Part shown: piece by piece, positions 47,040-60,216 of the stretch
Numbering within the stretch: the stretch's first letter is position 1
Layout: every line of letters begins with the position of its first letter
Assembly: GCA_044222185.1 (NCBI GenBank)
Contig: JBGANV010000005.1
Location: 96,001 to 160,000 of the forward strand
DNA: 64,000 bases
Reading direction: 5' to 3'
DNA from: Planctomycetota bacterium
GTDB taxonomy: Bacteria > Planctomycetota > GCA-002687715 > CAIWVZ01
The notes under the pieces: model-generated
Databases searched by the model: none
What the model was told of the DNA's origin: nothing
The model's input: only the letters and a program-made list of their open reading frames with translations
Program-made: the position numbers and the translations under genes

Positions 47040-49784
47040 ATGAACGACCCGACCTTCGATCCACCAGCCGCAATCCTCGAACGATTCCTCCAGAGATTCT
47101 GGGCGGATCACGACACCGGGACCGTCCTCGGGCTCGCGGAATACCTGCGACTGTTCCCGGGCGCGGACCTGGCGATCGCGCGCGAGTACCTGGCAGTCCA
47201 ATGCGACGACTCGCTCCCGGCGCGGTCCCAGGTGCCCGGGTCGCCGGCCACGGCATCCACTCCGGACGAGACCCGTATCGCCCACTATCGCGTCATCACC
47301 GAGCTGGGGCGCGGCGGGCAGGGGTCGGTGATGCTCTGCGAGGACACCCGGCTGGGCCGCCGCGTCGCATTGAAGATCCTGGACGGGCGGCGCTTGACGA
47401 ACGATGCCCTCGCCCGCTTCCTCCGCGAGTCGGCCGTCGTCGCGCGCCTCGACCACCCGAACATCTGCACGGTGTTCGACGCCGGGATCGACGGCGGAAC
47501 GCCGTACATCGCCATGCGCTACGTGGAGGGCGAGACGCTCATGCGGCTGCTGTGTGGTCCCGGGGATGTGCCCAGCACGATCCGCGTGCCGAGCCCGAAT
47601 GCCTCCCGCGACGACGACGAGCTCCGCGCCGGCCCGCCCCAACTCCAGCCGTATCGACCGCCGCGCGCCCGTCCTGAATTCGACCGGATCCTCACGATCA
47701 TCGAGAAACTCGCCCGCGCCCTGCACGTCGCTCACGAGGCCGGCGTGGTGCATCGCGACGTGAAGCCGGGCAACGTCATGGTCACGACCGAGGACGAGCC
47801 CGTCCTTCTGGACTTCGGCCTCGCGGCGACGATCGATGCAGAGCAGGCCACGCTCACGCGAATGGGTGACACGGTCGGAACGCCGGCTTATATGTCGCCC
47901 GAGCGGCTCCAGGGCGGCTCGTCGAGGCTGGATCGTCGCACCGACGTCTATTCGCTCGGCGTCACCCTCTTCGAAGCGCTGACGCACAGGCGGCCGTTCG
48001 AGGCACCGACGATCGAGTCCCTCACCCGCCTGATCGTGGACGCCGACCTCCCGGATCCGCGGACCCTCAACCCCGCGATCGGCGCCGATCTCGCGGTGGT
48101 GATCGCGACCGCGCTCGAACGCGATCTCGGGCGCCGCTACCAGACCGCACTCGAGTTCGCGGAGGAGCTGCGTCGCGTGCGCCAGTTCGAGCCGATCCAC
48201 GCGCGCCCTGCCGGCGCGTGGTTGAGGCTGAAGCGCCTCGCTCAGCGCCATCCGGGCATCGCCATCGCCGCCGCGGTGACGTTCCTGTCGATCTCGGTGA
48301 GCCTCGTCGTCTCGCTCGCAGCGCTGGCCGACGCCAACCGCGCGCGCGACGCGGAACGTGAGGGTCGGGCCGAAGCCCAGCGCGAGCGCAACGCGAAGGG
48401 CGCGGCGCTCGCCGAGTACGAACGACTCGCGGACGTCAAACGCCTTCAATCCCTGATCGCGGAAGCGGACTCGCTGTTTCCCGCGGTGCCCGCCACGGCT
48501 CCCGCGATCCGCAAGTGGCTCGCACGGGCGGACGATCTCGCCGCTGCGCGACCGCGTCACGAGGCCGCACTCTGGGCGCTGAGGGCTCGCGCCCCGCATG
48601 CGGACCCGGCGCAGAACCGCTGGCGTTTCGACGATGACGCGGACCAGTTCCGCCACGACACGCTGGAAGCGCTGGTCCGTGAGCTGGGTGAATTCCTGGC
48701 CGACGGGCCGGCGAAGGGGTTGGCCGCACGGATGAAGGCGCGCCTGGAATTCGCGGAGGCCATCGAGACCCGGTCGCTCGTCGATGCGCGCGCGGCCTGG
48801 ACGTCCGCGATCAACGCCATCGGCGACCGGGACCGGCATCCGGCCTACGGCGGTCTCCACATCGAGCCCCAGCTCGGACTCGTCCCGATCGGCGCCGACC
48901 CCGCGTCCGGCCTGTGGGAGTTCGCTCACCTTCAAAGCGGCACCGCACCGGCACGGGGGTCCGACGGGCGTCTGTCGATCACGCCCGAGTGTGGGATCGT
49001 CCTCGTGCTCATTCCGGGCGGGACGTTCACCATGGGCGCAGTCCGCGAGCGTCGCGCGGAATCCGGGAACGACGCGGCCGTGGACCCTTCGTCGCGTGCC
49101 AACGAACGTCCGGTGAACGTGGTGCGGCTCGATCCGTACTTCATCGGCAAATACGAAGTGACGCAGGCCCAGTGGACGCGTGCCGCCGGAAACAACCCCA
49201 GCAACTTCGCGAGCGGGACGCGTGCGGGCGACGAGGCGATCACCGATCTCAACCCCGTCGAACAAGTGACGTGGAGCGCCTGCGAGCGATTCCTCGGAGA
49301 GATGGCACTTTCGCTACCGACGGAGGCGCAGTGGGAATTCGCCGCCCGCGGCGGCCGGCAATCGCCCTGGTGGTTTGGTGACAAGGCCGAGGCGTTGAAG
49401 CTCACGGGAAACGTCGCCGATGCCGTCGCCAAGGCCCACGGAGGCCCGGAGTACCTCGTGTTCGAAGCCTGGGAGGACGGGCACGCGTGCCACGCTGCGG
49501 TCGGGTCGTTCGCTCCGAACCCGTTCGGGCTCCACGACACGTGCGGGAACATCCTCGAATGGTGTCGCGATTGGTACGCGCCCTACGACCAGCCGGTCAC
49601 CGCTGGCGCTGGCGAGCGGCGCGCATTGAACCCCACCATGCGTGTCGTCCGGGGCGGCAGCTTCCTCAGCGTCGCGTCGCTCTCGCGCAGCGCGTGGCGC
49701 GACGCCTACGAACCCGAGGTGCGAACGCACTTTCTCGGACTGCGTGCGGCGCGCGCGGTCACGAGGACGTCGTCGGGGCGATGA
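47040..49784 (+). CDS. Membrane Ser/Thr protein kinase fused to an FGE/SUMF1-like domain (paralog of 11223-14252)
   Basis: GRGGQG, VALK, HRDVKPGN, DFG, GTPAYMSPE, DVYSLG; TM; 'LPTEAQWEFAARGG', 'NPFGLHDTCGNILEW', 'RGGSF', 'GLRAAR'. Confidence 0.94.
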   Translation: MNDPTFDPPAAILERFLQRFWADHDTGTVLGLAEYLRLFPGADLAIAREYLAVQCDDSLPARSQVPGSPATASTPDETRIAHYRVITELGRGGQGSVMLCEDTRLGRRVALKILDGRRLTNDALARFLRESAVVARLDHPNICTVFDAGIDGGTPYIAMRYVEGETLMRLLCGPGDVPSTIRVPSPNASRDDDELRAGPPQLQPYRPPRARPEFDRILTIIEKLARALHVAHEAGVVHRDVKPGNVMVTTEDEPVLLDFGLAATIDAEQATLTRMGDTVGTPAYMSPERLQGGSSRLDRRTDVYSLGVTLFEALTHRRPFEAPTIESLTRLIVDADLPDPRTLNPAIGADLAVVIATALERDLGRRYQTALEFAEELRRVRQFEPIHARPAGAWLRLKRLAQRHPGIAIAAAVTFLSISVSLVVSLAALADANRARDAEREGRAEAQRERNAKGAALAEYERLADVKRLQSLIAEADSLFPAVPATAPAIRKWLARADDLAAARPRHEAALWALRARAPHADPAQNRWRFDDDADQFRHDTLEALVRELGEFLADGPAKGLAARMKARLEFAEAIETRSLVDARAAWTSAINAIGDRDRHPAYGGLHIEPQLGLVPIGADPASGLWEFAHLQSGTAPARGSDGRLSITPECGIVLVLIPGGTFTMGAVRERRAESGNDAAVDPSSRANERPVNVVRLDPYFIGKYEVTQAQWTRAAGNNPSNFASGTRAGDEAITDLNPVEQVTWSACERFLGEMALSLPTEAQWEFAARGGRQSPWWFGDKAEALKLTGNVADAVAKAHGGPEYLVFEAWEDGHACHAAVGSFAPNPFGLHDTCGNILEWCRDWYAPYDQPVTAGAGERRALNPTMRVVRGGSFLSVASLSRSAWRDAYEPEVRTHFLGLRAARAVTRTSSGR

Positions 49785-52869: not shown

Positions 52870-54297
52870 TCAGTCCTTCGTGAACAGTTCGGGGTGCGCC
52901 TGTCGCAGCGCCTCCGTTTGGGCTGCAGTGATCCGCCGCGCGGCCTCGCGCCCTTCCTGCTCGACGTTCCGCCGGGATTCGACGAGTGCTCGCAGCTTCG
53001 CGAGCCCTTCGGGTTTCACGCCAGGCGGTGGCGCCGCAAGCGCGCGCTCGATCTGAGACAGGAGGTCGTCGTAGCGACGCGCGAGGAACGCGCCATCGAT
53101 CCCTTTCGCGAGGTCGGACGCGTCCTTCAGCCCGTTGCGCGCGAACTTGTCGACGGCCGGACCGATGGCGCGCTCGTGCTGCGCCGCCCGGGAGCGCAGG
53201 TCCTTCATCGCATCGTTCCACGGCGCGAAGCCCTCGAGGGAACGGTTGACGACGCGGAACTGGACGAGCGGCGCAGTCAGGCCCGCATCGCTCTTTCGAC
53301 TGTCCGCACGTTCTGCGATCGCCTTCGCGTGAGCACCTGCGACGCCTGACAACCACGTCGAGAGTGTCGCCAGCTGCGCCGACAGCACGTCACGGTCGGG
53401 CACCTTCGTCGAGCTCTTGAGGAGCTTCTCCGTCCGTGCGAGCCCTTCGACGACGACCGAAAGATCCGGCTCCTCGTGCGCGAGGACCGAGCACACGCTC
53501 CGCAGCGTCTCCAGGGGTGAATCCGTCGACACCGAGTCGAGCCAGTCGATCATCTCACCGACCTGCTTCGGGAGCGGCCAGTGTCCGGTCTGCTCGTTCA
53601 GGCCCTCGACGATCTGGAGCTTCAGTTTCTTGTATCCCAAGTCGCGGTAGACCTTCTCCGTGCTGATCGCGCACTCGACCGGCACGACGGCGTCGGCGCG
53701 GCCATGAAGAATGCCCACCGCGATCTTCTCCTTGGCGATCTGGGAATGCTTGACGTTGCCGAGAACGTTCCCCGCGTGCGCGACGAATCCGTCGACGAGC
53801 TCCGGATGCTCGCCCGCGAACCAGTACGCGAAGAAAGCGCCCTGGCTGTGTCCATAGAGGTACACGCGATCGATGGGAAACCGCTTCTTGAAGTCGCCGA
53901 TCAACTCGGCGATGTGATCCCCGTCGGCCTTGCCCTGGACGAAGTTGAACGTCCCGCCCTGGCCGTCCGTCATCCCCTCCGGCGCGACGACGATGTCCGA
54001 TTTGCGAAAGGCACCGTTTGCGATGGGGTAGTTCCAGAACGCCCAGCCCCATTTCATGCCGGTGCCGTGCAGCATGATGAGGAGGTGCACCGGCTTCCCG
54101 GGAGCGAGCCCCTTCGGCAGGAGATACCACAGCGGTTTTCCGCGGGCGTCTGTCCACTCGAGGACGTCGCCTTTCGGCGCCGACATCGTGGGCTCCGCGC
54201 GCGCCGGCTCCTTGGCCTTCTGCTGCGCGAGGGTTTGTACTGCGACGAAGCAGGCGAGCGCGATCACCACGAACCCTCGACGTCTACGGACTTCCAT
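52870..54297 (-). CDS. Exported alpha/beta-hydrolase (phospholipase/carboxylesterase-like) with helical C-terminal extension
   Basis: 'IMLHGTG', 'YLYGHSQGA' (GxSxG), 'HGRADAVVP', 'GHWP'; signal ending TLA-QQ; GGGGAGA RBS. Confidence 0.88.
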   Translation of the reverse strand: MEVRRRRGFVVIALACFVAVQTLAQQKAKEPARAEPTMSAPKGDVLEWTDARGKPLWYLLPKGLAPGKPVHLLIMLHGTGMKWGWAFWNYPIANGAFRKSDIVVAPEGMTDGQGGTFNFVQGKADGDHIAELIGDFKKRFPIDRVYLYGHSQGAFFAYWFAGEHPELVDGFVAHAGNVLGNVKHSQIAKEKIAVGILHGRADAVVPVECAISTEKVYRDLGYKKLKLQIVEGLNEQTGHWPLPKQVGEMIDWLDSVSTDSPLETLRSVCSVLAHEEPDLSVVVEGLARTEKLLKSSTKVPDRDVLSAQLATLSTWLSGVAGAHAKAIAERADSRKSDAGLTAPLVQFRVVNRSLEGFAPWNDAMKDLRSRAAQHERAIGPAVDKFARNGLKDASDLAKGIDGAFLARRYDDLLSQIERALAAPPPGVKPEGLAKLRALVESRRNVEQEGREAARRITAAQTEALRQAHPELFTKD

Positions 54298-54383
54298 GCG
54301 GGTCTCCCCGCGCCGGCGCGCGGCGCGGCCGGATGACAGTATGCCGCAGGACGAGTCCCCGTTTCAGTCCCACGGCGCCGCGC

Positions 54384-54617
54384 GAGTCATCCTTGGTGTG
54401 CCGTGGCCCGCCCTGACCCGAGTTCCTCAGACGCGTCTCCGAGACGCGAACAGGAGTCCGCGCGGTGACGCATCGGGATGTGCCCACGGGGCCGCGGTCC
54501 ACACGAGACGAACGCATGAGGATTCGGGGGGAGCCGCAGCCGGAAGGCGAAGCGCGGGACACGCACGAAGTCGGGCTCGATCACTCCGACCTCGCGCGTG
54601 TTTCGCGGCGTTAGGAT
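54384..54617 (+). ncRNA. Candidate structured RNA upstream of senB (identity unresolved; some 6S-like motifs)
   Basis: Nested helices by eye: 54384-54391/54579-54586, 54392-54409/54489-54507, CGCGTCT-CCG-AGACGCG (54432-54448), GCC-GGAA-GGC (54539-54548); GGGAG...GGACACGCAC resembles 6S internal motifs. Confidence 0.3.
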
Positions 54618-54624
54618 CGGCGCC

Positions 54625-55614
54625 ATGAATCCGCTGGCCCTCGATCGTCGCCGCGTGTGAGTCGTCACGCCGGCCCCGCCGCGGTCGCGGACGGGCAACC
54701 GCGTGACGGCCCTGCGATGGACCCGAATCCTCCGCGCCCTGGGAGCGCATGTTCACGTGCGGCATGAAGGCTGCCCATGTGCTTCGGACGTCCTCGTCGC
54801 GCTCCACGCCACGAAGAGCGGAGCGGCGGTGCTGAAGCGCCACGAGCAGGCCCCGGATCGACCGATCGTCGTCGTGATGACGGGCACGGACCTCCACCCG
54901 GAGGGCGCGCCGTCGATGGATCCGCGGGCGCTCCCCGCACTCGAGTGCGCGCGGAGGATCGTCGTGCTGCATGCGGGCGCCGTCGCCGTCCTGCCCGCGG
55001 GTTTTCGGGCGAAGACGCGCGTGATCCTCCAGTCCGCCGTGCCACCGCGAACGATCATCCCTTCGGTCGATGACGCCATCGCAATCTGCGTCGTCGGTCA
55101 CCTGCGACCCGTGAAGGACCCGTTTCGCGCGGCCGAGGCCGCAGCGCGACTACCGTTCGACTCGCGGGTCCGGATCCTCCAGATCGGAGCCGCTCTCGAC
55201 GACTCGATGCGCGACCGTGCCCTCGCGGAGATGCGAACCAACGCGCGGTACGCCTGGATCGGTGAGTTGTCGTGGGAGAAGGCGCGCGCTCGGATGGCCG
55301 GCTGCGCGGCGATGCTGCTCACGTCGTTCTCCGAAGGCGGTGCGAGCGTCATCGGCGAAGCCGCGGTATGTGGGATCCCGATCCTCAGCACCCGCATCGA
55401 CGCCGCGGAAAGCCAGTTGGGCGCCGACCACCCGGGCCTCTTCGACGTGGGCGACACGGCGGCACTGACGCGGCTGCTCTCGCGGTTCGAACGAGATCCG
55501 GAGTTCCGCAGCGATCTCGCCGCGCGATCGAGGCGGGCGGCGCCCCAGTTTGCCCCCGAGCGCGAGGCGGCGGCAATCGCTGCGCTCATGGACGAGGTCT
55601 TCCTCGGCGACTGA
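54625..55614 (+). CDS. senB: Selenosugar synthase SenB (TIGR04348-like GT-B glycosyltransferase), candidate selenoprotein with in-frame TGA at codon 12
   Basis: Reads MNPLALDRRRV*VVTPAPPRSRTGNRVTALRW; family motifs 'GNRVTA.RW', 'VALHA.KS', 'TGTD', 'GHLRPVKDPF', 'SEGGA'; TAGGAT 7 nt before ATG 54625; the ORF-track start at 54703 would delete the conserved first strand and GN motif. Confidence 0.85.
54658..54696 (+). promoter_or_regulatory. In-frame UGA plus putative bacterial SECIS element
   Basis: TGA 54658-54660; stem GCCCCGCCGC (54673-54682) / GCGGACGGGC (54687-54696) with apical loop GGTC (54683-54686), starting 12 nt after the UGA. Confidence 0.6.
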
Positions 55615-55618
55615 CGCG

Positions 55619-57301
55619 CTACTTCAGGCCCGCCTGGATCCACTGCGAGAACTGGGCATCCAGTCGTTTCCAGTCCTCCGCCGTCCAATCGCCGAAGGTC
55701 CGCGACGCGACCTCCGCCAACCTCTCGCGCTCGTGCTTCTTCATCTCCTCCTGGAACTTCTTCGCGTCGCGCTGGCGCCGCTTGAACTCCTCCTCCTCTT
55801 CTTCCTCGGTGAGGGGATCCTTCGACGTGCGATGCTCCAGGAGGTCCTTCCATTGCTTCTTGTCGGCGGCCTCGAGCACCTCGAGAGAGCGCGCCATGCA
55901 CTCCTGGATCAAGCCCTTGGACTTGCCCTTCGCCCCGGGGCCGTCGAGCAGGAAACGCACGAAGAGCACGGCCTGCGCGCCGTAGATGTCGCCCTTCTCC
56001 CCGGCTGCCGCGAGATCCTCCCGCGGCTTCGAAACGAAGTCCGCCAACGGGATGAGTTGCTTCTTGCTGGCCGCGACCGCAGCTTCCCGGAGAGCCCAGA
56101 TCGGCGGAGTGAAGATCAGCCCGGCCTGCTTCTTCGAAATCCGCGCCTCGCTCAGATGAGAGATCAGCCCCGTCATCACCCAGCCGGGGAGAGCGAACCC
56201 AAGCGCCGGGTTCTTGTCGTTGAGGTACTGCGACAAGAGGGCCATCGCGATCGTCGAGAAGTCCGACAACACGCTCCCGCCGCGCTCCGCGCAAACGACT
56301 TCGCCAGTGTCGCCCACGTAGGAGTCGCCCGAACCCGACTGGTATGCGGACGCGACGTCCGGCGACGAACAGACGCGGAGGATCGACCGCATCACCTCGC
56401 CCTGGCCCACGTCCTTGAATCTCGCTTCCAGCCATTGCCGGACTTCCACCGCCTGCCACACCAGGAGCTCGGTGTATTTGGCGCTGGCGTTTCCGACGAC
56501 GACGAGGTTCTTCTCGTTCTTGACGGTCCATCCCTTGGGGAGGTCCTGCGTGACCTGTTTCAGCACGCGCTCCCGCCATTGACGACGGTGGGCCGCCTGC
56601 TCCTTCGCGAACTCCTTGTCGTCGGTGAGGAACCAGAGCCGGCTCACGCGGACGGCCTTCGATTCCGCGGCACCCGGGGCGGCCGTGCCTACGGTCAACG
56701 ATTTCAGGACCCGCTGCATCGGTCCTTTCACGTCCTCGTACTGCGCCTCGGCGACGTCGATTTCGACGGCCACGTCCTCCTCGGGGAGGTGGTAGATGCA
56801 CACGAGCAGACGCCGCGGGATCGCGGCCATCTTCTCGATCGTGACTTCGCGCTGGGTCACCGGGATCGCGCCGACCTCCCCGTTCGTCTCTGCACTGACG
56901 AAGTACCCGCCACCCTGGAAATTCCGCTTCAGGTAGTCGTCGTAGTTGCGGTATGGGCGGGAAACGTCGATCACGGTCACAGTGCGCGTGTCCGTCTTCT
57001 CGACCTCCACCGACACGCCGCCGTCCTTGACCTTCGGGAACGACAAAACGCGCATCGACGGCCGATGCGTCAGGGTTCCCGATGTGTCCTTGCCGCGGAT
57101 CGTGACCTCCCGATCGCCGATGAACTTGGCGAGGATCCACTGTTCGCCGGGCTTGATGGGGATCGTCTGCCACCCCGTCGGGAAACTCACCGAGAGGCCC
57201 TTGGCTGGGATCTTGTGAACGCTCTGCGACAGACCCGCGGACGAGGCGAGCGCGCCGACGAAACCCACGATCACGAGGAACCCGCACGCCGTTCGCGACA
57301 T
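55619..57301 (-). CDS. Exported hypothetical protein, DUF1570/peptidase-MA-like region with degenerate zinc motif
   Basis: AAGGAGA RBS; signal ending GLS-QS; 'LSQYL...LPGWVMTGL' and 'IYGAQAVLFVRFLL' resemble the 'HE..HQ...P.W..EGLA...Y.QSW..V.FL' pattern without the metal ligands. Confidence 0.7.
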   Translation of the reverse strand: MSRTACGFLVIVGFVGALASSAGLSQSVHKIPAKGLSVSFPTGWQTIPIKPGEQWILAKFIGDREVTIRGKDTSGTLTHRPSMRVLSFPKVKDGGVSVEVEKTDTRTVTVIDVSRPYRNYDDYLKRNFQGGGYFVSAETNGEVGAIPVTQREVTIEKMAAIPRRLLVCIYHLPEEDVAVEIDVAEAQYEDVKGPMQRVLKSLTVGTAAPGAAESKAVRVSRLWFLTDDKEFAKEQAAHRRQWRERVLKQVTQDLPKGWTVKNEKNLVVVGNASAKYTELLVWQAVEVRQWLEARFKDVGQGEVMRSILRVCSSPDVASAYQSGSGDSYVGDTGEVVCAERGGSVLSDFSTIAMALLSQYLNDKNPALGFALPGWVMTGLISHLSEARISKKQAGLIFTPPIWALREAAVAASKKQLIPLADFVSKPREDLAAAGEKGDIYGAQAVLFVRFLLDGPGAKGKSKGLIQECMARSLEVLEAADKKQWKDLLEHRTSKDPLTEEEEEEEFKRRQRDAKKFQEEMKKHERERLAEVASRTFGDWTAEDWKRLDAQFSQWIQAGLK

Positions 57302-57372
57302 GGTCGTCTCCTTCGAAGCGGACGGCGGGATTCTATGCGCGCGAGGCGGAACTCCAGCGAGAAAGTGGGCCG

Positions 57373-60216
57373 TCAGGTGTCCCGTGCCCGCTTCAGCCCG
57401 ATCAGGTTCGCGAGCAGGCGATAGGCGCCCGGAGTTCCCGACGGCAGTTGACGCCACAGATTCAGTCCCACGTAGACCCAGCGTCCCGTTCCCACCTTCG
57501 CTTCGACGAGCGCGCCCCTCTTCGCTCCCGCGTTGTAGGGAAACGGATCGGCCATCTCGACGAGGTCGACGTAACGGGGATCGCGCTCGCCGAGGAAGTA
57601 CGTCCCGCGCTCCTGCACCCAACCGTCCCATGTCTCCGGGCCGATTGCGTTGGGCGACCGGAACACGGGGTGGCCGGGCTGGAGCACGGTGACCGGCGCC
57701 ATCTCGTCGGTCACGCGATTCGTCGTGACCTTGGCCGGGTAGGGTCCGTACTGCGCGTCGTTGAACTCCGTCTTGTTGTACTGGACGAGGACGACTCCGC
57801 CGGCGCTCGCGTAGTCGAGGAGTCGCTGGTTGAAGGATCGCAGATCCGGGCGGCGCTCGTAGGCGCGGACGCCGGTCATGATGACGTCGAAGCGCGAGAG
57901 ATCACCGCCCGCGAGTTCCTCCTCCCCGATGAGTGTGACGCGCGCGCCGATCTGCTCGAGGGCGGTCGGAACGTCATCGCCGACACCCATGACGTAGCCG
58001 ACGCGCAGCCCTTCCTCGAACTTCGCATCGAGCAAGGCGAACGTCACGGCTGCGTCGTGGAAGACGTGCCGCCGCGTCGTGTGCGGATACTCGACGATCT
58101 GGAAGCCGCGGGTGAACGTCGCTGGCGTCTCGGACGCGTCGGTCGGCGCCGGGCGGAAGACCGCCTGGACGACCGCACGCCCCGGTGCCGTGCCCTCGGG
58201 GACGCGCACGTCGAACGTGACCGCCATCGATTCGTCTTCACGCTGGAGCGTGAGCGGAACCTGGACGGGATCCGACGACCATCCTGGCGGCAGGTCCAAG
58301 GAGACTGCGCCCCGGGCCGGACCCGGACGGCAGTTCGTCACGGTCACGCGCACGCTGCGCGAGACGGGAGCGGACGTCATCGCGGGCACCGCAGCGATCT
58401 CGGGCGTCACTCGCACGGAGTATGCCGGCACGACGAGGATCTCGTGGCGCTTCTCGCCGCTGAAGATGTTGCCGGGATGGCGAAACTCGATCGGCCGCAC
58501 GATTTCGATGCGGCGCCCGCCGACCTCGATCCCGAGCTGCGCGAGGAACGGCGTTGGCCGAAACGCGGCGCCGAACGGCGCATCGAACTCGAACTCATAG
58601 CGGTCGACGTCGGCGCGACGTCGCCAATGCGGCGCGGTGAATCGCGCGTCCGCCGGAATCCCGCCGACGATCGTGCACGTCCACGGGATGCCCGGCTTCA
58701 GTTCCGCGCTTGGCCTGGACTCGGGCAACGTCTTCTCGGTCGAGAAGCCGACCAAACGGATGAAGTCCAGACGGATCGGGTCGGCGCCGTGTTGTACGGC
58801 GTGGATGCCGACCTTGACCTCCTGGCCGGGAATGACGACGCCATCATCGGCGAGCACGTCGAGACGCCACCCGCGCGACGCGAGGATCGCATCCACCGCC
58901 GCATCCTCGGCGCGCGCCACGAGCCGCTCGGCATCGGGTGTCCACTCGCGCGGCGGGACGCGGTCGTGCAGGCGCGCCCTCAATCCGGCGAGGCGATCCT
59001 TCAGCTGGAGCAGGCCCGTGCCGGCGCGACCTCGCTCTCCCGACTGGAACTGCCGGCGGATCTCGTCCTGGAGATCGTCGATTGCCACGGCGTCCGCGAG
59101 GTTCTCGATGTCCGCGTCGTCGGGAATACGATCGGGACTGCCCTCGGGAATCCGCGGCGAGATGGCGCCTACGACCCCCATGCGGATCCCGTCGAGGATC
59201 GACACGCGGGGGTGACGCGGCTCCGTCGGCTCCGCGGTCGCCCACCCATCGCTCCAGACTTCGCGGAAGCGTGAGCTCGATCGGCTCGGCAGCGCCAGGA
59301 GCTGCGCCATCCCCTGGCATTTGTGCATGGAGCGCGCTTCGAGCCCGATCTCGGCGAACGTCGCTCCGAGGACCGGGTCGAACACCGACGTCTCGACGGT
59401 GAAGACCCGGGTGGCCTTCGTAGGCCATGTCTCGGGACGCGATTGCGGACGAGACTCGCCTGGTCCATCCGCACGTGAGTCCGTCGTCCGCGCGGCGCGC
59501 CCGCGGCCGCGACGAGATTCGGCGGATCGCGAGTCGGTCGGTTGGGACTCGGCGCCGAGTCCGAAGTTCGTGGACGCGAGGACGCGCCCCACGTGCCACG
59601 GGCGCAGCCCCTCGCCCAACTGTTCGGGAAACGCCTCGGATGAACCCGCCAGCCGCGCCGCCTCGGCGGCGAGCTTCGCGGACGTCTGATGGTGCTGGCC
59701 TCCGCCGTCACCGATCGGGTGCATCGTCAGGACGACGTCCGGGCGATGGATCCGCATCTGCCGGACGAAGTCGCCGAGGATCTCATCGCGACCCCACCGC
59801 GACAGTGTCTCCTCCACGCTGAACGAATAGCCGAAGTCGACCGCCCGCGTGAACCACTGCTCGGCTCCGTCGAGGCGATGCACGGCCGCCAGTTCCTCCG
59901 TCCGCAGCACTGCGAGGGCATCGAAGATCTCGGGACCGATTTCGTTCTGACCGCCGTCACCACGGGTTGCCGTCACGACGACGACGCGGGATCCCTCACC
60001 CAACGCGAGCCGTGCGATCAGCGCGCTGTTCTCGTCGTCGGGGTGCGCCGTACAGATCATCACGGTCGCCGGATTCCCGATCCTGCGAAGCGCGAGCGTG
60101 AGCGCCGCGTCGCCCGAGTCCTGCCGCGGATGCACCCGCAGCTGAGCCCAGGAACACGCCGCCAGCGCACAGACCGCGATCGCCATCCGAACGCGAATGC
60201 CGGTCGTAAGGAGCAT
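57373..60216 (-). CDS. PIG-L/LmbE-family deacetylase with NEW3-like and C-terminal glutamine-amidotransferase-like domains
   Basis: 'TAHPDDEN', 'TRGDGGQNEIG', 'LRTEEL', 'DFGYS', 'HHQ', 'RSMHKCQG'; 'LDLPPGWSSDP'; 'VGYVMGVGDDVP', 'GVRAY', 'WVQERG'. Confidence 0.92.
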   Translation of the reverse strand: MLLTTGIRVRMAIAVCALAACSWAQLRVHPRQDSGDAALTLALRRIGNPATVMICTAHPDDENSALIARLALGEGSRVVVVTATRGDGGQNEIGPEIFDALAVLRTEELAAVHRLDGAEQWFTRAVDFGYSFSVEETLSRWGRDEILGDFVRQMRIHRPDVVLTMHPIGDGGGQHHQTSAKLAAEAARLAGSSEAFPEQLGEGLRPWHVGRVLASTNFGLGAESQPTDSRSAESRRGRGRAARTTDSRADGPGESRPQSRPETWPTKATRVFTVETSVFDPVLGATFAEIGLEARSMHKCQGMAQLLALPSRSSSRFREVWSDGWATAEPTEPRHPRVSILDGIRMGVVGAISPRIPEGSPDRIPDDADIENLADAVAIDDLQDEIRRQFQSGERGRAGTGLLQLKDRLAGLRARLHDRVPPREWTPDAERLVARAEDAAVDAILASRGWRLDVLADDGVVIPGQEVKVGIHAVQHGADPIRLDFIRLVGFSTEKTLPESRPSAELKPGIPWTCTIVGGIPADARFTAPHWRRRADVDRYEFEFDAPFGAAFRPTPFLAQLGIEVGGRRIEIVRPIEFRHPGNIFSGEKRHEILVVPAYSVRVTPEIAAVPAMTSAPVSRSVRVTVTNCRPGPARGAVSLDLPPGWSSDPVQVPLTLQREDESMAVTFDVRVPEGTAPGRAVVQAVFRPAPTDASETPATFTRGFQIVEYPHTTRRHVFHDAAVTFALLDAKFEEGLRVGYVMGVGDDVPTALEQIGARVTLIGEEELAGGDLSRFDVIMTGVRAYERRPDLRSFNQRLLDYASAGGVVLVQYNKTEFNDAQYGPYPAKVTTNRVTDEMAPVTVLQPGHPVFRSPNAIGPETWDGWVQERGTYFLGERDPRYVDLVEMADPFPYNAGAKRGALVEAKVGTGRWVYVGLNLWRQLPSGTPGAYRLLANLIGLKRARDT

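Follow-up and report, generated by a model that had tools for sequence, protein, structure and literature searches.

SenB, a selenosugar synthase of the selenoneine pathway whose substrates are selenophosphate and a UDP-sugar, is known from Variovorax paradoxus-type enzymes with solved structures (TIGR04348; PDB 8jjn, 8jjq, 8fbx and 8k5u). The characterized senB genes, as far as the available parts of the publications go, lie within senA-senB-senC clusters. In the available part of a Nature Communications 2024 study (PMC10891094), mutagenesis of V. paradoxus SenB identifies N20, T23, K158, E231 and E239 as residues that matter, and H58, D86, R155 and V157 are named in addition. Here we discuss a gene of the same family, located at positions 54625 to 55614 (plus strand) of a 64,000-nucleotide stretch of DNA from a Planctomycetota bacterium (assembly GCA_044222185.1, contig JBGANV010000005.1, positions 96,001 to 160,000), which we call the window. 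All nine important residues are common to the window protein, where N25, T28, H61, D89, R161, V163, K164, E237 and E245 align with N20, T23, H58, D86, R155, V157, K158, E231 and E239, respectively. The window gene differs in that it stands alone, in a genome without SenA, that the SenB motif EGGAHV has become EGGASV, and that it has an in-frame TGA where the solved enzymes have Val7 (8jjn) or Ala7 (8k5u). We consider it probable that this TGA is a selenocysteine (Sec) codon, which would be read by the route involving SelB and a selenocysteine insertion sequence (SECIS).

Sec-containing SelD acts in selenium metabolism and is a selenoprotein, as is proposed for the window SenB, and it too has its Sec near the N-terminus. 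In SelD, however, the Sec or Cys is the catalytic residue of an N-terminal loop (PMC13188914, available part), whereas the SenB column is variable and probably non-catalytic. The selD hairpin of the window genome has a GUC apical loop between a G and a C, which means that GGUC can be read there too; it lies approximately 36 nt from the UGA, compared with 26 nt in the window SenB.

Bacterial SECIS elements are stem-loops within the coding sequence (CDS), directly past the UGA, whose apical loop is small and contains G (PMC1088965), and the hairpin of the window SenB shares this layout. It departs from the fdhF type in that the stem register differs among SenB lineages, no covariation is seen, and no Rfam model was matched. 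The SECIS of Escherichia coli fdhF has a GGUC loop, which is somewhat nearer to the UGA than in the window SenB. For fdhF(Sec) of Treponema primitia, the available part of the published account (PMC3892789) describes selenium as controlling expression through translation of the UGA, and this is the principle behind the selenium gate considered below. In that case Sec is catalytic, in formate dehydrogenase, and the effect is on transcription, whereas in SenB a putative non-catalytic Sec at codon 4-12 would belong to a consumer of selenophosphate.

A Sec-containing SenB or glycosyltransferase is not mentioned in the literature searched on SenB, selenoneine, selenocysteine and TIGR04348, supplements not being covered. 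The available parts of the Kayrouz 2022 preprint and of the Nature Communications 2024 SenB study do not mention a UGA in senB; the main text of the 2026 review of the prokaryotic selenoproteome has 0 occurrences of both "SenB" and "glycosyl", and the deep-Sep paper likewise has 0 occurrences.

The senB frame and its TGA codon

The main features of the locus are as follows:

54612-54617, plus strand: TAGGAT, holding a Shine-Dalgarno (SD)-like AGGA 8 nt before ATG 54625, TAGGAT itself ending 7 nt before the ATG (direct reading)
54625-55614, plus strand: SenB (TIGR04348) CDS, 329 codons, the in-frame TGA among them, followed by the stop codon 55612-55614 (translation, profile, model, residues)
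54625-54627, plus strand: most likely start codon, ATG, making the TGA codon 12 (SD-like motif upstream)
54658-54660, plus strand: in-frame TGA, putatively encoding Sec as residue 12, halfway along strand beta-1 (sequence, independent contig, homologs)
54661-54710, plus strand: SECIS-like hairpin in the CDS, outer stem 54661-54670/54701-54710, inner stem 54675-54682/54687-54695 (minimum free energy, MFE, fold)
54683-54686, plus strand: apical loop GGUC, nt 26-29 if the U of the UGA is nt 1 (fold)
54703-54705, plus strand: GTG, the first ATG/GTG/TTG past the TGA (list of open reading frames, ORFs)

The frame can be read directly from ATG 54625 through the TGA to the stop codon with no other interruption, and begins MNPLALDRRRV-TGA-VVTPAPPRSRTGNRVTALRW. 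Everything that an earlier note, made from the DNA alone, had stated about the letters of this region holds, including the ATG seven nt after TAGGAT and the frame that stays open to 55614. With the TGA decoded, the product has 329 residues. Scored with C substituted for U, it reaches 301.5 bits on the TIGR04348/SenB profile, barely over the cut-off of 300, and covers profile positions 1-309 of 310, a match over nearly the whole profile that upholds the earlier assignment to SenB. Profile position 1 corresponds to V11, the TGA being position 2. Pfam recognizes Glycos_transf_1, and the sequence matches to the four solved SenB chains have E values of 3e-44 to 9e-39.

An AlphaFold2 model built from 44 sequences (predicted local distance difference test, pLDDT, 93.6; predicted template modeling score, pTM, 0.90) contains alternating strand-helix elements in two halves, a GT-B-type pattern, and the predicted structure agrees with the two Rossmann-like domains expected of that fold. 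Residues 10-14 form the first strand, beta-1, where the earlier note had also placed the TGA; the residue sits mid strand, 13 residues before Asn25.

ATG 54625 is the sole ATG/GTG/TTG with an SD-like motif before the TGA, apart from GTG 54655, which abuts the TGA. The start must be one of these two, most likely the ATG and less likely the GTG. The usual start of the family lies three codons before the column (M-x-I-X-I-V-T-P), where the window has CGC. The gene call for this locus in the protein collection is a truncation of 261 aa (P0002) starting at GTG 54829, a coordinate calculated from the P0002 N-terminus.

What other SenB proteins have at this column is mixed. Among 113 close homologs (those readable at the column among the 120 best of 2769 database homologs) we find L 36, C 27, T 9, R 9, E 6, G 6, A 5 and others, several of the Cys entries being near-duplicates; the statement in the earlier note that homologs often have Cys or a hydrophobic residue here was thus correct. 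The 33 other SenB genes of the phylum sample have L 7, A 6, E 4, G 3, Q 3, R 3, C 2, V 2, and I, T and S once each. In a 35-row tree the TGA gene of genome G217 pairs with a Cys-bearing gene (support 93), and in a larger tree G217 and the metagenome gene L066 form a pair within a small group containing two Cys genes. The column therefore shows a Sec/Cys relationship but is not conserved. Because it is variable, and because of its position in beta-1, 13 residues before Asn25, the residue is probably not catalytic, which is in keeping with the earlier remark that the TGA does not occupy an obvious catalytic position. In the classical selenoprotein pipeline, a candidate survives only when TGA/Cys makes up more than half of its homolog pairs (PMC1088965), and a site such as this one, with a TGA/Cys share below that 50%, is for this reason discarded by classical screens.

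One close SenB homolog, P0017, has Trp at the column (TGG is one base from TGA), and its sister in the tree has Cys. No disulfide or selenosulfide partner Cys covarying with the column is proposed, the best uncorrected p values being 0.017 and 0.03.

Recurrence, hairpin and genomic setting

TGA is present at exactly the window's column in seven further SenB genes (L061, L064-L067, L071 and L072), which come from three genomes in two phyla and from four metagenome contigs. With Cys in 27 of the 113 homologs, TGA and Cys do alternate at the column among relatives, which the earlier note had proposed as a check.

The window's phylum was sampled with 401 genomes, 59 of which have SenB (60 matches). 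Four matches contain one internal stop, in all cases TGA; two of these, in the window gene and in G217 (L061; context TTG CGA ATC TGA ATC GTC ACG), are at the window column, and those of G251 and G397 lie elsewhere. The second sample, also of 401 genomes, covers the phylum of the genome carrying locus L062 (Acidobacteriaceae bacterium). It gave 35 match rows in 33 genomes, a tally in which the unpublished genome G450 is counted, and only there, as a SenB match without a stop. TGA was found in two of these genes (G407 and G533) and TAA in one (G495). Both TGA codons are at the window's column and follow ATG CGG ATA, and the G407 SenB is the top-scoring match of that sample (421 bits).

The metagenome genes were found with a pattern of TGA followed by degenerate codons of (I/V/L)(V/I/A)TP, 21 free bases and GN(R/G)xT. 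Six loci matched, of which four are SenB with TGA at the column and two are chance matches; the four SenB genes have no second stop before the end of the SenB domain. Three of them start ATG AGG ATC TGA (L064), ATG AAG ATC TGA (L065) and ATG CAC GTG TGA (L066). The TGA is codon 4 in most copies, with ATG or TTG three codons before it in five of the seven other TGA genes. Scanning genome contigs with the window protein for close relatives produced one unrelated 32% match only.

With the TGA translated as U, the six other full-length TGA genes reach 345-422 bits over the entire TIGR04348 profile; the seventh, that of G217, is interrupted by a contig end. No other stop is present in any of the eight TGA genes, which represent about five lineages (identity 43-61% between and 79-88% within lineages). 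In a tree built with FastTree from 156 SenB sequences, the TGA column being left out, at least four changes to TGA are required, and all TGA genes fall in one Cys-rich clade of 72 rows (support 90). The chance of three among six stop-bearing independent genome lineages sharing one column is, by rough arithmetic, about 2e-4, assuming random stops over approximately 310 codons; the metagenome loci are not counted, since the pattern required TGA.

Single stops at other places were seen in G251:C7:86298-87224 (L059; TGA in the interdomain linker), G397:C1:2535249-2536187 (L060; TGA in helix alpha-1) and G495:C283:8951-9898 (L073; TAA). These three genomes all have selA and tRNA-Sec, and their stop-bearing SenB genes look like pseudogenes or errors.

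Past the TGA, the coding sequence is under selection. For L061 versus L066 the ratio of nonsynonymous to synonymous substitution rates (dN/dS) over 150 codons is 0.28, with dS = 0.56, and over the first 16 codons past the TGA, which contain no possible start, dN = 0 and dS = 0.15. Only 3-11 codons precede the TGA, too few to judge conservation upstream.

The fold of 54658-54717 agrees with the earlier description of a hairpin 12 nt past the TGA with the apical loop GGUC: the G15/G16 pairs begin at that distance, and the outer stem already 1 nt past the TGA. The MFE is -35.3 kcal/mol (z = -2.10; 5 of 200 dinucleotide shuffles are equally stable). Equal stability is found in 0.4% of 4000 random genome 60-mers and in 4.9% of 245 GC-matched ones, which makes the hairpin moderately unusual, and resampling of synonymous codons in the window gives z = -2.54 (p = 0.003).

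The region from nt 10 to nt 51 after the column was compared between the eight TGA genes and the 33 other SenB genes. A hairpin was counted if it had a stem of at least 4 stacked bp and a loop of 3-10 nt containing GU, 16-37 nt from the codon; these limits on distance and loop size are those of bacterial SECIS elements. Such a hairpin is present in six of the eight TGA genes and in 2 of the 33 others (p = 1.6e-4), or, by lineage, in 4/5 versus 2/33 (p = 1e-3), in statistics that ignore phylogeny. Local folding energy over the same region is lower in the TGA genes (Mann-Whitney p = 7e-5), and GGU, a motif picked out post hoc, occurs at nt 22-31 in all eight of them versus 5/33. The genes L041 and L055, which encode the same APPRSR peptide and have no TGA, use other Pro, Arg and Ser codons, and the hairpin is missing. 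The GU-loop hairpin that the earlier note had seen in the window gene therefore goes with the TGA genes; covariation, which the note had named as a check, was not found by RNAalifold.

The window genome (7.08 Mb in 16 contigs, 93.8% complete) belongs to an organism of activated-sludge or bioreactor communities and possesses the machinery for Sec decoding: all of selA, selB, selC and selD, for which the earlier note had suggested a search, are present. These are selA (487 bits) with the tRNA-Sec gene 80 nt downstream, selB (330 bits), and a single selD, unlinked to senB, that itself has an in-frame TGA (SPGGG-TGA-ACKIG). As to the other genomes with TGA at the column, G217 has tRNA-Sec and selB, and G407 and G533 each have tRNA-Sec and selA. 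Of 40 SenB genomes tested in the two phyla, 39 have a selD copy bearing an in-frame TGA and 36 have a single selD. This gene adjoins senB in only about two of the 40 (G719 and G757), so that the senA-senB-senC cassette of the literature is not the rule in these two phyla.

A scan of the window genome by codon-position GC returned 100 candidates with in-frame TGA, two of which are plainly UxxC redoxin genes. They read FFMYW-TGA-PPCGEE (G000:C1, minus strand, scan offset 574252 on the reverse complement) and YFAYW-TGA-GPCKAA (G000:C4, plus strand, near base 240737), and these thioredoxin-fold genes are likely selenoproteins of the window's organism. The hairpins after their TGA codons are shaped differently from that of SenB. 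The selA region is at G000:C1:1620001-1634000 (L069), with tRNA-Sec 80 nt on; approximately 5 kb upstream of selA are genes for an FGE-sulfatase protein without DinB_2 and for a DUF1801 protein, and an ORF of 1111 residues whose middle domain is of the hydrazine-synthase-alpha type.

Four of the eight TGA genes lie beside SenA-type and/or EgtD-type genes. L067 and G533 have the same order, SenA, SenB and an EgtD-type methyltransferase (the L067 SenA scores 524 bits on NF041186); in G407 a SenA-type gene precedes SenB, and in L064 SenB is followed by a SenA fragment. The genomic association with senA/senC is thus present for four other TGA genes and absent for the window SenB. In L067 (1597-3474) no stop separates the SenB frame from that of the methyltransferase, 523 residues being open past the TGA, and the gene may be a fusion of SenB with EgtD. 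Three in-frame TGA codons follow in the far 3′ part of this contig.

The neighbors of the window gene are:

52870-54297, minus strand: upstream divergent neighbor, alpha/beta hydrolase, no sen-cluster member (Pfam Abhydrolase_2/1)
55619-57631, minus strand: downstream convergent neighbor, ORF without family, no sen-cluster member (no Pfam/NCBIfam match)

Both are unrelated minus-strand genes, and neither senA nor selD/senC adjoins senB, as the earlier note had remarked. A plus-strand ORF at 54056-54628, whose stop codon overlaps ATG 54625 (ATGA), was rejected as a gene: its GC-rich translation looks off-frame, and it overlaps the real minus-strand gene at 52870-54297. No sigma-70 consensus promoter was found in 54250-55750, and a promoter and terminator scan of the region gave nothing.

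The remark that no senA lies nearby can be extended to the whole genome, which has no SenA at cut-off, and tblastn for EgtD in the window genome gave no match. For this reason the product of the window pathway is probably not selenoneine. The SenA profile does match the FGE-sulfatase domain at 43 places in the genome, many of them in ORFs of 850-1250 residues, a large expansion of this domain. An ORF of 914 residues within the window (47040-49784, plus strand) reads like a Ser/Thr kinase with an FGE-sulfatase-type C-terminal domain; the match, to the SenA profile, is confined to that domain.

The window copy is at most 53% identical to anything in the protein collection. Its nearest relative is P0003 (sister, support 98; 53% identical), which is intact and has a called start, MTPAPP, one codon before the TP motif. 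This suggests that the N-terminus of P0003 is also blocked, and P0003 is probably of the TGA type too.

A probable selenocysteine and the rival readings

Decoding by SelB and a SECIS is the simplest reading of TGA 54658-54660, because the codon recurs, selection continues past it, homologs have Cys, the hairpin is specific to TGA genes, and the hosts decode Sec. We judge it probable that the codon is Sec, as the earlier note had proposed, and the independent contig described at the end of this section adds to the support. SenB is accordingly proposed to be a selenoprotein in a minority of lineages.

Several points weigh against this interpretation. Known selenoenzymes conserve their catalytic Sec, whereas this column varies (L, C, T, R, E, G, A and others), and a UGA at codon 4, with a hairpin so near the start, is unusually early for Sec decoding. 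L067 begins ATA CGG ATA TGA, with ATA where G407 and G533 have ATG. The window copy is the most divergent: no branch in the 35-row tree is longer than its own, and among 114 well-conserved columns it shows 18 deviations, the median being 4.5. SenA is absent from its genome, the best match anywhere being 95 bits against a cut-off of 420 and covering the FGE-sulfatase domain only. As for the RNA, the overall stability of the hairpin is largely explained by the encoded peptide and GC content. Resampling of synonymous codons is inconsistent in the other five TGA genes (z = -1.53, -0.92, -0.57, +0.03 and +1.13), and L061 and L066 fail the hairpin criterion in the MFE fold and satisfy it only in an alternative fold. 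For six TGA sequences RNAalifold yields a weak consensus (-10.2 kcal/mol) with no favorable covariation term, and Rfam at permissive thresholds, applied to this region of the window and to five loci, matched no SECIS family, all hits being at chance level. The post hoc choice of GGU and the disregard of phylogeny in the hairpin statistics belong here too. Finally, selA occurs in 288 of the 401 genomes of the window's phylum and selD in all 40 SenB genomes tested, and because these base rates are so high we have dropped the co-occurrence of Sec machinery as discriminating evidence.

The divergence of the window copy, with its longest branch, its many deviations at conserved columns and a TIGR04348 score just over the cut-off (301.5 versus 300), would also be expected if the TGA were a nonsense mutation and senB dead or dying, either in the window genome alone or in all TGA copies. 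The lack of a SenA or EgtD match in the genome, the stops elsewhere in the SenB genes of G251 and G397 (TGA) and G495 (TAA), and the fact that a single mutation separates TGA from common Cys, Arg or Gly codons point the same way. We nevertheless hold a nonsense mutation to be unlikely. It would have to account for TGA at one column in about five lineages with no further stop in eight genes, random sharing of a column by three genome lineages having a probability of about 2e-4, and for a dN/dS of 0.28 past the codon. The G407 copy is moreover the best SenB of its phylum sample (421 bits), TGA copies are found in intact senA-senB-egtD clusters, the window copy keeps all catalytic residues, and its sister P0003 (53% identical) is intact.

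Low-level read-through by a near-cognate (Trp or Cys) tRNA, independent of SelB, would make the UGA a leaky stop and a constitutive attenuator of SenB. UGA followed by A is a leaky context in bacteria, and A follows the UGA in six of the eight genes; many residues are tolerated at the column, in one case Trp (P0017), and the hairpin consensus is weak. A simple leaky stop, however, has no use for a GU-loop hairpin at a SECIS-like distance that is specific to TGA genes (6/8 versus 2/33), every host examined decodes Sec, and the residue strongly enriched at the column is Cys, the chemical analogue of Sec. To a leaky stop we give little credence.

Alternatively, the TGA could close a leader peptide of 3-11 codons, with SenB re-initiating at the next codon or downstream (GTG 54703 or later) and lacking its N-terminus. 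In most copies a start codon does stand three codons before the TGA, M-x-(I/V)-stop resembles a mini-ORF, and gene callers predict shortened products (P0002 with 261 aa; P0003 from MTP). The codon after the TGA is ATC in six genes, GTC in one and CTG in one; these are inefficient starts and simply encode the hydrophobic beta-1 residue of all homologs. The six TGA genes tabulated have no ATG, GTG or TTG from the TGA to the GN motif, yet this stretch is conserved (dN = 0, L061 versus L066), and in the window a start at 54703 would lose beta-1 and Asn25 (the equivalent of N20). A leader peptide is therefore very improbable.

Logan contigs of four runs were compared over 54300-55700, X5, X8 and X9 being without coverage of the TGA codon; the contig of X2, a run from an independent study, spans 54300-55014 at a depth of only 6 at the TGA site and contains the same TGA, its 715 bases differing from the window only at 54550. 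A sequencing or assembly error, which a metagenome-type assembly of 16 contigs and this low depth might have led one to suspect and which the earlier note had wished to see checked at 54658, has next to no probability, since a contig from a different study has the same TGA with its single difference elsewhere and seven other sequences have TGA at the column.

A possible selenium gate and its meaning

If the TGA encodes Sec, translation would most likely begin at ATG 54625, and the ribosome would meet the UGA at codon 12. The hairpin, with its GGUC loop 26-29 nt from the U of the UGA, would recruit SelB and Sec-tRNA(Sec), and Sec would enter strand beta-1, giving a full-length, catalytically competent SenB selenosugar synthase. 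SenB would then be made only if Sec-tRNA(Sec) is charged, i.e., if selenophosphate is available; without selenium, translation would stop after 3-11 codons.

What purpose Sec might serve is a separate matter. Tentatively, the UGA may be a selenium sensor in the message and not a device for catalysis, so that selenoproteins would obtain selenium first, and selenosugar or selenoneine would be made only in surplus; we regard this as possible, though less likely than not. Such a gate, which the earlier note had put forward, fits the variable, non-catalytic column and the position of the TGA at codon 4 in most copies. SenB consumes selenophosphate, from which Sec-tRNA(Sec) is also made, and in selenium shortage the cost would be almost nothing, only a peptide of 3-11 residues. 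The conserved coding sequence of TPAPP(R/G)SR readily folds into a SECIS-like structure, which would explain at least four recruitments of this column, with Cys, one base from TGA, common there. A chemical role for a Cys/Sec thiol or selenol, in redox or selenium handling, is equally allowed, because Cys is enriched at the column.

The Sec reading has practical consequences for annotation. Gene callers shorten SenB (to 261 aa at the window locus), a blind spot through which senB genes of the TGA type are mis-annotated, and heterologous expression of such a gene would fail without a Sec system or a change of TGA to TGC. Confirmation of Sec would make SenB a new and unusual family of bacterial selenoproteins: a glycosyltransferase and not a redox enzyme, with its Sec only a few codons into the gene, at a site that varies and is not catalytic. 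It would join Sec decoding with selenoneine/selenosugar biosynthesis, traits so far handled apart, and would offer a directly testable case of Sec acting mainly as a translational selenium checkpoint.

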